Assembly (NCBI GenBank): GCA_963808625.1
Contig: CAWEHK010000044.1
Span: forward strand, 1-64,000
Source: an uncultured delta proteobacterium
Lineage (GTDB): Bacteria > Desulfobacterota > Syntrophobacteria > Syntrophobacterales > Syntrophobacteraceae
Length of the DNA: 64,000 bases
Direction of reading: 5' to 3'
Shown: one piece after another, positions 23,226-28,888 of the stretch
How positions within the stretch are numbered: position 1 is the stretch's first letter
How the letters are laid out: each line of letters begins with the position of its first letter
Notes under the pieces: model-generated
What the model was told of the DNA's origin: nothing
Databases searched by the model: none
The model's input: the letters and a program-made list of their open reading frames with translations, nothing else
Made by a program: the position numbers and the translations under genes

Positions 23226-23540
23226 GGCTGCTAATTTAATCGTGCCGATCAACCGTTTCGACAGGTGTTGTGAACGCCCCTGGCCGGGCTCTCAGGAGCA
23301 GTGAGGGACGGCTCATCGAGGACATCATCCAGCATACGGCGCCTCTCAATCAACCATAAGAAAAGAATGCATCGAATCCGGCATCTCCTGAAGCTGCATC
23401 TCCTGATTGACTCCATTGAAATCTAAGCGTATCTTACCGATACGAGTTCATGCTTTCGAGTCAAAATATGGCTGATTGGCCCGTTTTAGAAACATAAGTT
23501 GATCTGGTCCGAATCCTTCTCTACAGGAAGGAGCCAAGAA

Positions 23541-24265
23541 ATGACGACCGGTGCGCGGACAGTTCAATCGCGACAATTCTTCCCAGGAAAAGCAGGTTCT
23601 CAGCCACCAAGGCAGGACGCCCTAACGGCTTCCACTCGCGCACCGAAGCTGATGGACCAACTGCATGAGGCATTCCTATCACGCCACTACAGCCGACGCA
23701 CAGAGCGGGCCTATCGTCAATGTCTGCGACTGCGCGTCCAGGATATCGATTTCGGACGCGGTGAGCTTCTCGTTCGAGACGGCAAGGGGGCCAAGGACCG
23801 GGTCAGTATGCTTCCATGCCGCTTAAGGCCCCGCTTCAGGACCACCTCAAGAAGGTCGAGGCGATTCATGAGCGCGACTTGGCCGATGGCTGGGGCTGTG
23901 TCCAGTTGCCGAGCGCCGTGGATCGCAAATACCCCAAGGCCCCGAGGGACTGGTGCTGGCAATGGGTCTTCCCGCAGGAGAACCGGTGGAAAAACACGAA
24001 GACTGGCGAGGAAGGGCGCCATCATACACACGAAACGATTCTCCAACGGGAAGTGAAAGAAGGTTTACGCAAGGCCGAAGCAGTGAAGCACGTCGGTTGC
24101 CACAGCTTTCGGCATTCCTTTGCGAGGCATCTGCTGGAGGCGGGGTATGATATCCGCACTATCCAAGAACTTCTTGGGCACAAAGACGTCAGCACGACCA
24201 TGATCTACACTCATGTATTGAACAGAGGTGGCCAGGGTGTGCGAAGTCCTATGGATGGGCTCTGA
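23541..24265 (+). pseudogene. intI: Integron integrase, internally deleted and frameshifted
   Basis: [17 protein letters not shown], integron-specific insertion LP.A.DRKYP....[18 protein letters not shown] and [17 protein letters not shown]. The box I Arg region is missing. Confidence 0.92.
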
Positions 24266-24404: not shown

Positions 24405-24434
24405 TTTATACAGACTGTATAATCATTGTTATGC
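24405..24434 (+). other. Putative attI site
   Basis: GTTATGC core at 24428 is complementary to the first cassette R'' GCATAAC (25118); preceded by the palindrome TTTATACAGACTGTATAA. Confidence 0.75.
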
Positions 24435-24445
24435 ACGAGTGAACC

Positions 24446-25123
24446 ATGATCTTGGATCTAAGCAAATATGATTTCCGCTTGCTGGAAGTTCAAAGTGAAC
24501 TCTATGCTCTGGAAGACCATCTCAAGCTCATAGAAGGCCAGATGGAGCACATCCAGACAAAAGAACGTCTCCGGCTCGACACCCATATCAAGAGCAAAGG
24601 TTTATCGTCTGAAGACCCTGAATGGCACCAGGTGCTAGATGAATATGATGAACGAATAGAGTTTCTTCTTCCCAGATTCTTTAGAGGACCATTCCTGGTC
24701 GCACTTTATGCGGTGTATGAGTTTGCGGTCACTGAAATAGCCCAACTCATGCAGCAAAGCCTGTCACAAGGCATTTCCATAAAGGACCTCAAAGGTGACT
24801 TTTTGGAACGAGCAAAGAAATACTATAAACACATTCTGAACTTCGACTTGTCCACTGAAGCGAAAGCATGGCAGCGAATTAGGATGCTTGCAGAGCTCCG
24901 CAACGCGTTTGCTCACGTTAACGGTCGCATGGAAATGCTCAACGAGAAATCAAGAAAGATCATTAAGGGCTGGGAGGGACAAAAAGCAGGAATAACCACA
25001 TACTCTGGGTACATAGTGTGTGATGCTAAGATTGTTTCTGAAATATTCCAAGCCGTACATGTGTCACTGGAAGAACTTTTGACTAGGTTCAAGCAGTGGG
25101 ACGACAATCAATCGCATGCATAA
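24446..25123 (+). CDS. Cassette 1: hypothetical protein (possible HEPN/MAE_28990-like)
   Basis: ELRNAFAH matches the RxxxxH HEPN-like motif. The stop codon lies in R''. Confidence 0.6.
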   Translation: MILDLSKYDFRLLEVQSELYALEDHLKLIEGQMEHIQTKERLRLDTHIKSKGLSSEDPEWHQVLDEYDERIEFLLPRFFRGPFLVALYAVYEFAVTEIAQLMQQSLSQGISIKDLKGDFLERAKKYYKHILNFDLSTEAKAWQRIRMLAELRNAFAHVNGRMEMLNEKSRKIIKGWEGQKAGITTYSGYIVCDAKIVSEIFQAVHVSLEELLTRFKQWDDNQSHA

Positions 25124-25228
25124 CAAGGCCATCCACGCGGACACGCAACTACGCCGGGCGCATGCGGTGGCATTTTCCGAAGTTCCCTTGGTGGCGTGGT
25201 TACGTGCCGGTGATGGCCAGCGTTAGCC
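25118..25228 (+). other. attC site 1
   Basis: GCATAAC...GTTAGCC with imperfect inverted repeat (ggccatccac..gtgatggcc). Confidence 0.9.
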
Positions 25229-25284: not shown

Positions 25285-26155
25285 ATGAGAGTCTTCATAA
25301 GTTGGTCAGGCGATACAAGCCAAAGCCTTGCTAAGGCATTCAGCAACTGGTTACCAGCCGTAATTCAGGCTGCAAGGCCATACTTCACACCGGATGCCAT
25401 CAACAAGGGTGCGCGTTGGTACAGTGAGATCTCAGTGGAACTGGAACATGCAAGAGTCGGAATAATCTTTTTGACCCAGGAGAATCTCTGAGGCTCCATG
25501 GCTATTGTTCGAGGCAGGTGCACTTTCCAAGAGTATCGACAAATCTCTCGTTATCCCACTTCTGTTTGGGATCAGTCCTGCAGAGATGAAAGGGCCGTTG
25601 GTTCAATTCCAGGCTGTAGTTTTTGGAAAAGAGGAAATCCGGAAGCTGATAGGAACAATTAATTCTGCCTTGGAAAAACAAGCACTTTCCAATTCCCTCC
25701 TGGATTCAATCTTTGAAACATGGTGGCCAGCCCTCGAATCTCAGGTCAACAAGGTACTCGATGAATCAAGAAGGTCTAAACCGGCTGTACTCAGAAGTGA
25801 CAGAGAGCTACTGGAGGAATTACTAGAAATCGCCAGATCCACCAATTACAGGAATATAAGGCCTCATCTCAACTTTGATGATCGTTTGTTCTATTCGGTT
25901 GATGATCTTGCGTTGGCCGATGATATACACAATAAACTCAGGGCACATGATATACGTTATGTTGGCGAATTGGTCCAAAAAAGCGAAGCAGAGATTATTG
26001 GTATATGCGACCAGGATAAAGAATCAGTGGCTGAGATCAAATGGGCCTTAGCATGCCAGGGGCTCTCATTAGGTATGCACATCGGATCTGGTCGTACAGG
26101 AGTGATCAAGCCTCGCTTGCGATATAGCGATTATCTTTTTCTTGGCCGCAGTTAA
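25285..26155 (+). CDS. Cassette 2: TIR-domain protein with C-terminal RNA polymerase alpha-CTD-like domain (one frameshift at ~25489)
   Basis: VFISWSG...WLP.VIQ...KGARW...PWLLFEAGAL TIR domain; VDDL.L....N.L....I.Y.G.LVQ.SE...EIK..L...GLSLGM alpha-CTD. Confidence 0.82.
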
Positions 26156-26181: not shown

Positions 26182-26291
26182 GGCTAACGATGGCCTGAAC
26201 CGGGCGCGAAACCACGCGGAGCATATTGGTCTGTACTCTCCGAATGTTCACTGGCCGCGCGGTCTCGCACCGGTTAGGCCTGTTGTTAAAC
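26182..26291 (+). other. attC site 2
   Basis: GGCTAAC (complement of upstream GTTAGCC)...GTTAAAC; arms ggcctgaaccgg/ccggttaggcc. Confidence 0.9.
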
Positions 26292-26294
26292 AAC

Positions 26295-27028
26295 ATGAGG
26301 AAAGACCGAGTGGATAATCCGCAGTTCAATCTAAATCGACGGCGCGTCGATGCGTTGTCTCGTGATGTCCTTGTCCAGGAGCTCCGGAAAGTCGCGGAAC
26401 AACTTGGTGGTCGTCGCTTCTCCCGACACGAGTTTGATCTGCACGCCACCGAGTGCAAGGGGAGTGCCGTTCTGGCTCACTTCGGCACGTGGTCCGCAGC
26501 ACTCAGCGCCATTGGCACGCCCCTCGCAGATCATCGACCCAATCGAAAGCAGATCACAGACGTTCAACTGCTCTCTGAACTCGCCAGAGTCTGGCGCGCG
26601 CTCGGTCATCGCCCTTCGAAGCTAGAATGGGAAGCCTCAAGCGCCTCCTATTCGTACACTGCATACAAGCAGAGGTTCGGCGGCTGGGTTAACGCTTGTG
26701 CTGAGCTCGTTGGCCGGAACGTCGAAAAAATTGGAGAGCATGTTGTTGATACGGTTGCTGATACGGAACGCGGCCACGGGGCTGTCGCTAGAGTTCCTCC
26801 TGAGCGCATACGCGCCATGCCGTTGAAGCTCCGGCTTCGTGTGTTGACCCGTGACCAGTTTCGTTGCGTCTTGTGCGGCCGCACACCAGCATTAAACCAA
26901 GGGGCTGTGCTTCATATTGATCACATAATTCCGTTATCCGACGGTGGCCTGACCACGGAAGCGAATCTGCGAACTCCTGCGAACTTTGCAACTGGGGGAA
27001 GGGCGCTGATGCTGGGCATGCCGTCTAA
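26295..27028 (+). CDS. Cassette 3: HNH endonuclease with homing-endonuclease-associated repeats (frameshift near end)
   Basis: Two FG(T/G)W repeats, RDQFRCVLCG, LHIDHIIP...GG....NLRT(L)CELCNWGKG. Confidence 0.82.
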
Positions 27029-27083
27029 CCGGTTGCAGCGGTCGGTCCGCTGCGCGGCCCGCCGCTGAACCGTGGCGTTGCAC
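27023..27083 (+). other. attC site 3
   Basis: GTCTAAC..ttgcagcgg..ccgctgaa..GTTGCAC. Confidence 0.85.
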
Positions 27084-27121
27084 CTGACTCCTTATCAGTC
27101 GCAGGTGAACTTTGCGTTAGC

Positions 27122-27953
27122 TTGCGACACGATGTCGCATAGTTGAGTGTACTCAGGTACTTACCTGGAGTACCCGGCATGTTCCTGCCGGTCTCTACGC
27201 AGGCGTGCTACCGTCGCGCTGATGACGGGGTGCGAAGCCCTGCGGACAATGTACCGAATCGGGTTCGAATGGTGACAGGAGAACCCCTCGGGGAATCCTC
27301 CCCCGTTAAGGGCTAGAGACGGATGATATGGTGAAAACATTTGAATGCCTGCAAGCGTCGTCAAAGAGCGTCCGACCTACGAGGATTAACCCAAGTTTTA
27401 CAGGTCGAAGGCCGCTTCCCAGTGTTTGCGGCAAGGGGTCAGGTTGCAGGTCTCCTAACTGCCTGCACGGAACCGTAGCACCTCCGGCGTAGAGGGCGCA
27501 CCTAAGTCATCCATTGGATCAACTATGAGGAACGTGGAAACCTCGTACCTCTGCCTGGTCTTCCAGGCAGGTGAACCGCAAGGCACACTGTCGGGGGTGC
27601 GGGATTGAGAGGCTGGAAGAAGCGAATGCCATCCTGTAATGGGATGGATACGGGTTCAAGATTTGCCCGGCCCGAAAGGGAGCAGACGTCCGGCGGGTGT
27701 CTCGTTGCGAGAAAGCTGAGAGAACCACATCAAGGAAGGAAAGCAAATGAACACGGCTTCGGCCAGTGTGTGCACCTTCCCCCGAAAGGCATTGTGGCTG
27801 TTGGCGTGTATCGCAAAGTTGGTGAGGGCAGTTCCTCATCGGCGGGTGGCCCCACAAGGGTTCACCTTTGAGATGCTTGAGCCGTGTGACGGGAAACTGT
27901 CAAGCACGGTTCTGAGGGGGGAAAGGGGCCGAGAGGCCCCTGACCTACCCGGT
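27122..27953 (+). mobile_element. ORF-less group II intron
   Basis: 5' TTGCG; domain V GAGCCGTGTGACGGGAAACTGTCAAGCACGGTTC (27879-27912); domain VI ending CTACCCGGT; no RT ORF. Confidence 0.88.
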
Positions 27954-28138
27954 TGTGTTGAGCATGCGGAGTCCATCTTTTACGAACTTCCTTCCCCCAC
28001 CTGGCTGGACAGGAAGTGGCTTAGCGGGGCACGCTTTGAACGAGTCACGGAGTTTTGTGTTGTTCTTGGGCGCGCCGCCTGCTAACCTTTTTTTGTCTAA
28101 CTCAGAACAAACGACGACCAATTTCGAGGAGGAAAAAG

Positions 28139-28888
28139 TTGCAAAGAAAGGCCCTGCTCATATCGAACGCTGGCGAAGAGAACGCAGAGAATTACTGTCG
28201 AGGCGTCTTCGTGGACACCGAAAGCTATAGGACGTTTCTCTCCTCTCCTCTTGGAGGAGCTTGGTTCTCATCAGAAATTATTCACCTTGACCGCCCAACT
28301 TGCAGGCAAGTCAAAACGGAGGTCTCTAACCTTCGCTCTGCCGATTACTCTCTAATTCTCTTTTCCGGGCATGGGTATTTTTCGGAGAGTCGTGAAACCA
28401 CCATCATCGAATTACGAAAGAATGAAGAATATGACTCGATTGATCTGAGGGATGGGGCGATCAAGCGAACAATAATTCTGGACTGTTGTAGAAAGGTGTA
28501 CCCAGAAGTAGTTCTTGAAAAGGCAATTCTAGCAAAGATGGCAGCGAAGGCTGAAATCCTCAACTTCAATGAATGCCGCAAGTACTTTGATGCCACTCTG
28601 GAAAAATGTGCACCAGGGATTGTAGCAGCGTATTCTTGCTCAAAGAATGAAGTAAGCGGGGATGGTGGATCACGGGGTGGTTTTTATGCATCAAGTCTGC
28701 TTAAGGCTACAAACAACTGGCTAGAACAAAGCAATGTGGACCTCGCCAGAAAATATGCTCCTTATTCCATAGTCCGAGCTCATAACTCCGCTATTCCCCT
28801 TGTAGCCAGGCTCAGTGGTGGCACCCAAAACCCCCATATTGAAAAGCCGCGATCTGAACCATATTTTCCATTTGCCATAATGGCTTAG
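28139..28888 (+). CDS. Caspase-like protease (peptidase C14), standalone
   Basis: RKALLI N-terminus, FSGHG (His) and IILDCCR (Cys); GAGGAGG RBS before a TTG start. Confidence 0.85.
   Translation: MQRKALLISNAGEENAENYCRGVFVDTESYRTFLSSPLGGAWFSSEIIHLDRPTCRQVKTEVSNLRSADYSLILFSGHGYFSESRETTIIELRKNEEYDSIDLRDGAIKRTIILDCCRKVYPEVVLEKAILAKMAAKAEILNFNECRKYFDATLEKCAPGIVAAYSCSKNEVSGDGGSRGGFYASSLLKATNNWLEQSNVDLARKYAPYSIVRAHNSAIPLVARLSGGTQNPHIEKPRSEPYFPFAIMA

Follow-up and report, generated by a model that had tools for sequence, protein, structure and literature searches.

Bacterial TIR domains cleave NAD+ once several copies of them are brought together. In plants, NLR receptors with integrated domains (e.g., RRS1-WRKY) include, as part of the receptor, a copy of something that pathogens target.

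Several bacterial systems stand close to the protein described here. The TIR protein of the P2_AC1 system is one of them: the three cloned AC1 genes (TM + TM + TIR) protect E. coli against lambda, LF82_P8 and P2, and the TIR component has been proposed to signal to the membrane proteins (Rousset et al. 2022, PMC9122126). Thoeris ThsB and the single-gene TIRs of E. coli (TIR-V, VI and IX; PMC11350192) use a TIR domain with a catalytic Glu as a phage sensor, and type IV Thoeris combines a TIR protein with a caspase (PMC13434031). The decoys of Panoptes, PARIS and retrons are, in the accessible texts, either nucleotides or host proteins under guard; fused fragments of the core machinery are not among them. 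The accessible literature describes neither a fusion of TIR with the C-terminal domain of the RNA polymerase alpha subunit (alpha-CTD) nor an exchangeable slot; the integron screens of Darracq 2025 and Kieffer 2025 are known to us through the partly accessible review PMC13434031, and their cassettes could include a member. The alpha-CTD family, PF03118, is absent from one supplement of PMC13069673.

The window, i.e., the whole stretch of 64,000 nt that was analyzed, contains such a fusion. All coordinates given here are on its forward strand. Positions 25285-26155 encode a protein of 289 residues when the one break is bridged with X. Its initial 68 codons (25285-25488) belong to a TIR domain, the remainder of which (25490-25690) includes the codon of the putative catalytic Glu (25511-25513, residue 76); a two-helix stalk, conserved family-wide, follows at 25691-25858 (model helices 68-95 and 104-123, and family alignments), and at 25871-26080 there is an RpoA alpha-CTD (Pfam RNA_pol_A_CTD), with its DNA-binding face eroded and here acidic. 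The second frame, 25490-26155, carries the rest of the TIR domain with the Glu motif, the helical stalk and RNA_pol_A_CTD. The match to Pfam TIR_2 (E 0.0026, 18.7 bits) is below the cut-off of 28 bits because the domain is cut by the break; intact homologs pass that cut-off (e.g., P0123, 35.9 bits), and 145 of 145 family representatives match TIR_2 at E <= 0.01. A structural model matches solved TIR structures, and the family Glu, invariant in all 316 of 316 proteins, lines up with the Glu of TIR domains in PDB. The sequence-only reading, made from the letters of this DNA without database searches, had proposed an N-terminal TIR with a catalytic Glu and a helical linker, and this part of it stands.

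For the C-terminal domain, the score against PF03118 is 31.1 bits, above the cut-off of 23.8 (E 2e-7), and the gapless alignment to E. coli RpoA, earlier made by eye, is returned by a search of PDB with E 4e-11. An AlphaFold2 model of the 221-residue piece from the window has pLDDT of 94-98 across the alpha-CTD and superimposes on the E. coli domain with 1.2 A rmsd over 70 residues, so that the alpha-CTD fold, on which the sequence-only reading had made itself depend, is adopted. The intact homolog P0004 is modeled as TIR, two long helices and an alpha-CTD (mean pLDDT 86; 0.9 A to 3k4g); its two-copy complex prediction scores 0.40, with the mark at 0.42 and one control at 0.38. The fused domain shares with the CTD of RpoA (PF03118; PDB 3n4m, 3k4g) the fold, E286/E288 and, relative to the host protein, 51% identity, and differs from it in the lack of the alpha-NTD, in the changed DNA face and in its position behind a TIR domain. 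The model of the full-length RpoA equivalog, which includes the alpha-NTD, gives 54 bits against a cut-off of 302, and the true rpoA of this genome is on another contig (C22). No longer protein bearing this alpha-CTD scored, which is weak evidence, and neither the window protein nor the representatives match NB-ARC or LRR.

Among named models, TIR-TM of PADLOC (PDLC03016) covers residues 1-193 of the read-through protein with E 2e-73; from this match and from the neighboring accession, TIR-NLR, we infer that the model derives from the PMC9122126 paper. P2_AC1 also provides the best phage match. The P2_AC1 TIR (CAH0786487.1) resembles the window protein in having a TIR and the stalk (40% identity over 203 aa) and in its mobile location, and the fusion is thus akin to a validated defence TIR; unlike the window protein, it ends in a helical C-terminus without an alpha-CTD, and two membrane genes adjoin it. 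Genes of these membrane partners had no match by tblastn at E 0.01 in the window genome (85% complete) or in the fetched loci. Similarity to Thoeris is slight: ThsB models show traces of it in the fusion family, with E 7e-4 at best, in a homolog, and no ThsA is found beside the window gene or in the scanned alpha-CTD loci; one ThsA model had no match in the window genome, and neither did its positive control. Assignment of the fusion to TIR-V or TIR-IX was rejected, as those models have one Trp each, versus a Trp-rich family.

The break at 25489-25491 comes from a single additional base within a short TC repeat, as had been noticed at about 25489 before, and leads to an in-frame stop after codon 68. 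An indirect test of indels in this assembly was based on 79 conserved genes of a genome of the same family, for which 20 regions with 404 ORFs had served as queries. In this assembly, 19 of the 79 well-conserved genes are frameshifted, with 28 shifts in 95.6 kb, whereas in the reverse direction none of 90 genes is frameshifted in the same-family relative. At this rate, the chance that a gene is broken in this way is 22% for a length of 870 bases. The single break, the intact core and the ordinary length of the terminal TIR branch of the window copy (0.48 vs. median 0.45) together make the extra base probably an assembly error rather than a mutation, and the window copy, with about the same confidence, intact in the cell. 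The other reading is that this copy is a decaying pseudogene, in which the acidic substitutions represent drift after inactivation. The stop after codon 68, the most acidic DNA face among 55 fused domains, the long branch of the copy in the domain tree and the integrase gene, which is broken too, are all in line with decay; the rate of frameshifts in the assembly as compared to the relative, the intact hydrophobic core and Glu, the presence of only one break and the ordinary TIR branch argue against it. We regard decay as doubtful, and it would leave the reading of the family unaffected. Assembly-wide, there is about one frameshift per 3.4 kb of conserved genes, so that other findings of broken genes here are suspect.

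The gene at 25285-26155 is the single gene of an integron cassette, with an attC on each side. The integron had been recognized by eye, and here it is corroborated by the integrase model and by both hairpins. The integrase gene intI (23499-24265) faces the array and occupies at least two frames, being broken or mis-assembled; its fragment at 23816-24262 matches TIGR02249 with E 5e-64 (216.6 bits vs. cut-off 265), and Phage_integrase of Pfam is matched by both pieces. The direction of intI is that of the cassettes, towards attI, which we take to be the reverse-type integron arrangement. A probable attI core site, with the crossover of the first cassette, is read from the sequence at 24428-24434, where it would be complementary to the R'' box at 25118. 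Cassette 1 (24446-25123) encodes a HEPN-like protein of 225 aa, with a weak match to Pfam HEPN_RiboL-PSP (E 8e-4) and one to PADLOC RTasHEPN (E 2e-8). The attC 5' of the TIR cassette, at 25118-25228, forms a hairpin on the bottom strand (z -2.61), and the attC closing the cassette, at 26182 to about 26291, forms one with z -4.04, equaled by none of 200 shuffles. The R' box that precedes the TIR gene (25222-25228) and the R'' box that follows it (26182) are complementary, as expected of one cassette, and so the gene travels alone. Two attC sites, complementary R boxes and an integron integrase close by, frameshifted in the assembly, are thus all present. Cassette 3 (26298-27023) encodes HNH_repeat and HNH nuclease domains found by Pfam. 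An ORF-less group II intron remnant of ~880 bases, at about 27080-27955, is located at the R' box of the attC of the HNH cassette, and two near-complete copies of it (95-97%) and several partial ones are on other contigs. A later cassette, at 28136-28888, encodes a caspase-family peptidase (Peptidase_C14, E 1e-11), for which searches of PADLOC and PDB gave no match. A scan for promoters gave nothing beyond chance.

The fusion gene is likewise alone in its cassette in two further arrays, at loci L183 and L211, the latter seen by eye. Our first attC finder was loose, with five sites in a 9-kb control; a stricter one found sites in one of 203 controls and in 3/74 and 3/58 loci without the alpha-CTD, and missed L211. 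The automatic scan detected a downstream attC in one of 15 alpha-CTD loci.

Intact fused homologs, which the sequence-only reading had asked for, are available, and none of the three refuting conditions of that reading that could be checked by computation overturned it. TIR_2 and PF03118 are both present, in precomputed Pfam annotation, in 42 of 119 other top matches, and 46 of the 119 are found by a search with the host alpha-CTD; the intact fusions are 238-295 aa long and 43-53% identical. The alpha-CTD form occurs in records of delta-, gamma- and beta-proteobacteria; it is seen at 6 of the 80 best genome loci, at 11 of 80 from metagenomes and at none of 80 viral ones. The TIR plus the stalk, about 190 residues, which we call the chassis, is much more widespread, with 7,972 clusters at 50% identity (E <= 1e-30); it is present in 7 of 401 genomes of the phylum to which the window belongs, and matches 140 viral contigs. 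In the ESM Atlas there is a cluster of 122 whose only name is TIR protein; 58% of its members carry TIR_2 and 27% carry PF03118. The Atlas also contains free-standing alpha-CTD proteins of 75-82 aa, with two clusters in which the few members that have a phylum are assigned to tailed phages most often; another protein, P0122 (1031 aa), has 12 tandem alpha-CTD repeats after a short N-terminal region. Such stand-alone and repeated modules indicate that the domain is promiscuous.

What follows the stalk varies from protein to protein. Among 145 representatives, the slot contains the alpha-CTD in 10, the Tudor domain of PcrA/UvrD in two (above the cut-off), DnaX_C in two (below the cut-off), and GntR, TSCPD, pentapeptide and HATPase in one each; in most members the C-terminus is helical and belongs to no named family, so that pieces recognizable as host-derived make up the smaller share. 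The machines of transcription or replication use Tudor, tau-C, the alpha-CTD and the SSB tip for docking, and this common character is the main reason why a bait or a dock is to be taken seriously. An SSB-like acidic tail with Ile/Leu-Pro-Phe ends 63 of 314 dereplicated proteins, the motif being that of the SSB tip in the accessible part of bioRxiv 2026.04.29.721553. In one alpha-CTD member, P0149, an acidic Val-Pro-Pro stretch is present past the domain. Candidates without Pfam support were not counted: these are C-termini resembling IF2-N and ACT, seen by eye (P0203 and P0255), two of four DnaX-C-like ones and one Tudor-like one (P0214, P0256 and P0188); they carry labels in the chassis tree nonetheless. 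A Tudor-bearing protein is sister to a non-Tudor protein with 100% support, and the main alpha-CTD group, of 48 proteins, lies within a clade shared with 28 SSB-tail proteins. One chassis with an exchangeable C-terminus among sister proteins is, at the level of sequence, a new observation.

The history of the captured domain is less clear. The RpoA of the same host is the best match out of 42 in four of seven genome pairs, with one tie; the window alpha-CTD is 51% identical to the RpoA of its own host and 49% to the next best. In a tree built on the 72 columns of the domain, three delta-proteobacterial fusions are placed among RpoA of the delta type and three gamma-proteobacterial ones among the gamma type; the window domain itself is on a long branch among gamma-type, not host-type, RpoA. 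Of the intact fusions, P0014 and P0051 have domains of the gamma/beta type, and P0004 one of the delta type. The alpha-CTD proteins form seven groups on a FastTree tree; a single alpha-CTD clade has p-AU of 0.59 in the TIR tree and 0.079 with the domain alone, and neither tree rejects a single origin. That domains were captured repeatedly from the host lineage is offered as a lead, not as established. Recent gene conversion from the host rpoA was considered and set aside: codon identity, 0.26 vs. a mean of 0.32, is at background, with no DNA signal.

Comparison of the window copy with E. coli RpoA gives V264D, R265D, C269K, N294D, G296D and K298E, and N268 and S299 are kept. Six of eight DNA-face residues are thus changed, five of them to acids, and two of eight are kept. 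The residue list is what we take to be the DNA face of the alpha-CTD, i.e., the positions of the 265 determinant. The 265 determinant is the name used for the DNA-contact set in PMC9638938. We compared 55 fused domains, after three of 58, truncated or partly aligned, had been dropped, with 42 RpoA controls, ~34 of which come from one phylum. The eight DNA-face positions are kept at 0.36 in the fused domains vs. 0.99 in the controls, which supports loss of the DNA-binding face across the family. Elsewhere in the fused domains, conservation is 0.72 in the hydrophobic core and 0.53 at the remaining conserved polar positions; the difference between the DNA face and these polar positions has p = 0.08 over positions, and the face is lower in 40 of 55 sequences, which are not independent. 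R265 is kept in 26 of 55 fused domains and lost in 29, including the window copy; at least four of six key DNA residues are kept in 15 of 55, and all six in two. When 11 positions of the DNA face are summed, the net charge is -4 in the window copy, -3 in one other and positive in 43 of 55. The description of the domain as charge-reversed is accordingly right for the window copy, and does not define the family: only 2 of 55 domains are at -3 or lower, and the window copy is the extreme.

By sequence comparison, the family trait is erosion of the DNA face, by each member differently. As erosion is modestly above that of other polar sites (0.36 vs. 0.53, p = 0.08), relaxed selection and selection for a bait blind to DNA would account for it equally well. 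On the activator-binding side, E286 is found in 48 of 55 fused domains, an acid at 288 in 44 of 55 and K291 in 28 of 54; E286 and the acidic 288 may have been kept for structural reasons. No surface patch is invariant among the 55 fused domains.

The genomic neighborhood does not contain a conserved partner: when three genes on each side were taken at 79 loci, no family of neighbors recurred in more than three loci. At loci without the alpha-CTD, 14 of 135 immediate neighbors match PADLOC at E <= 1e-20, nine of them specifically, a count made without a background set; alpha-CTD loci have a PADLOC-matching neighbor in three of 15 distinct cases (Old nuclease, PDC-S35 and PDC-M49A; neighbors were scanned by Pfam in 56 of 73 and 31 selected ORFs), and several of these loci sit among housekeeping genes. 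Elsewhere, lambdoid prophages of E. coli have a chassis member by itself between Q and the holin gene (L171:3001-3816; phage mEp390), chassis TIR genes lie directly beside complete type II Thoeris operons, each with its own ThsB (L006 and L024), and another lies beside Thoeris-like genes on a plasmid (L172). The window genome has 18 other matches to TIR_2. A role of the fusion in defence is, on these grounds, likely, and somewhat more than half of that expectation goes to versions in which sensing runs through the alpha-CTD.

The reading that we prefer, although we would put it a little short of an even chance, is a TIR protein that acts against phages on its own and has a sensor slot of host origin, in which the alpha-CTD is the bait. 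The protein would combine, in one gene, an enzyme, a stalk and an exchangeable sensor. The TIR domain, with its invariant Glu, would cleave NAD+ upon clustering; the stalk would hold a slot that is filled by varied modules across the family, and in this subfamily by an alpha-CTD taken over from rpoA. This domain would retain the fold and part of the protein-binding surface (E286, acidic 288 and helix 4), with the reading of DNA being dispensable. A phage protein that grips the host alpha-CTD, whether an activator, an inhibitor or a modifier, would grip the bait instead, and its binding may cluster or unlock the TIR domains, with the result that NAD+ is consumed or made into a signal and infection is aborted. 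Phage attack on alpha takes several forms: T4 ADP-ribosylates R265 (PMC9638938, PMC9503650), and cleavage of the alpha linker is induced by Rac (PMC7552054). The Mor and C activators of phage Mu are a further case. A copy that lacks R265 offers no substrate to enzymes of the Alt/ModA type, and activator-type binders would be a better guess for the trigger of the window copy.

The analysis shows the architecture, fold, cassette, family, erosion and domain exchange, and the exchangeable host-derived C-termini of sister proteins are the best argument for a bait. Several results weigh against it. The residue targeted by T4 is gone from 29 of 55 domains, the window copy among them; the erosion of the DNA face relative to polar sites falls short of significance (p = 0.08 over positions), with sequences that are not independent; a PADLOC neighbor is found at 3 of 15 alpha-CTD loci, a downstream attC by the automatic scan at one of 15, several loci among housekeeping genes and the alpha-CTD form in none of the 80 viral loci; repeated capture is a lead, with the window domain among gamma-type RpoA and its codons at background; and the C-terminus of most members is helical and of no known family, while the alpha-CTD module is itself promiscuous.

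A sensor of the same kind may have a different output, with the protein acting as an orphan Thoeris-like enzyme. Instead of draining NAD+ by itself, it would produce an ADP-ribose messenger, and the gene of the responding effector would lie elsewhere. The signaling to membrane proteins proposed for the AC1 relative (PMC9122126), the pairing of TIR with caspase in type IV Thoeris (PMC13434031), the chassis genes flanking Thoeris operons at L006 and L024 and Thoeris-like genes at L172, and the 18 other TIR_2 matches in the window genome would all fit this. Yet both operons have a ThsB of their own, no partner is conserved in 79 loci, the AC1 membrane genes are unmatched in the fetched loci and in the window genome, and a cassette must function wherever it is inserted. 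The caspase cassette at 28136-28888 is a possible but unproven unlinked effector; tried as the effector of a type IV Thoeris, it had no match in PADLOC or PDB. We consider an unlinked effector fairly unlikely.

In a further alternative, the alpha-CTD is a dock or a guard: it would tie the TIR to the partners of the host alpha-CTD (NusA, activators, sigma region 4) or, in the less eroded members, to DNA, and the enzyme would fire when a phage disturbs the complex. Versions with Tudor, DnaX-C and SSB tails would dock on RNA polymerase and the replisome likewise, every recognized slot module being, by its generally known function, a docking module of a host machine; the 15 of 55 domains with at least four of six key DNA residues kept are consistent with docking, and resemblance to the RpoA of the host lineage fits it as well as it fits a bait. 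It is nevertheless a general consideration that a free domain at low copy competes with two alpha-CTDs per polymerase, and the strong divergence between members is more in keeping with an arms race than with the binding of a host partner that is itself conserved. Docking, on this balance, is unlikely.

Alternatively, the alpha-CTD may be a structural part, a helix-hairpin-helix (SAM-like) module that oligomerizes or auto-inhibits the TIR, with sensing done by the TIR or the stalk. SAM domains play such a part in SARM1, and the alpha-CTD belongs to the SAM-like fold class; the core is kept while surfaces drift, and P0149 has a weak match to SAM_EPH (E 0.0065). Contacts between alpha-CTDs are also described in the accessible part of PMC9638938. 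A self-interface would need an invariant surface patch, which the fused domains do not have, and the slot accepts unrelated folds, making this explanation decidedly unlikely. A role outside defence, as a regulator of transcription or NAD metabolism that titrates alpha-CTD partners, would suit the loci among housekeeping genes, and is very unlikely in view of the scattered occurrence of the family (7 genomes out of 401 in the phylum), the cassette and prophage locations and the kinship to a validated defence TIR.

Returning to the bait, its logic would be that of the integrated domains of plant NLRs, with a fused copy of a host target that has diverged from the housekeeping role, in a protein of 289 aa without the NB-ARC or LRR scaffold. 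The broader claim is that a very large bacterial TIR family consists of modular immune receptors, each with a slot for an integrated decoy. The alpha-CTD of RNA polymerase, the Tudor domain of PcrA/UvrD, the C-terminus of Pol III tau, TSCPD of ribonucleotide reductase and the SSB tail would have been captured, in some cases from the lineage of the present host, to bait the proteins with which phages take over the cell. This claim is possible, and we hold it tentatively, at clearly less than even. If true, such a family would be the prokaryotic counterpart of plant NLRs with integrated domains, perhaps the first such family in bacteria, and the contents of the slot would be a ready-made catalog of what phages attack. 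Most known triggers of TIR defence are structural or replication proteins of phages (PMC11350192, accessible part). A receptor baited with a piece of host transcription machinery would sense the takeover itself, and would be hard to escape without losing the takeover. With the chassis constant and the slot varying, swaps of the slot should swap phage specificity, and each slot could be used to fish for phage proteins that bind its module, be it alpha-CTD, Tudor domain or SSB tail. Should the idea of the bait fail, the chassis still represents an unnamed, widespread and apparently single-gene relative of a validated, mechanistically unstudied defence TIR.
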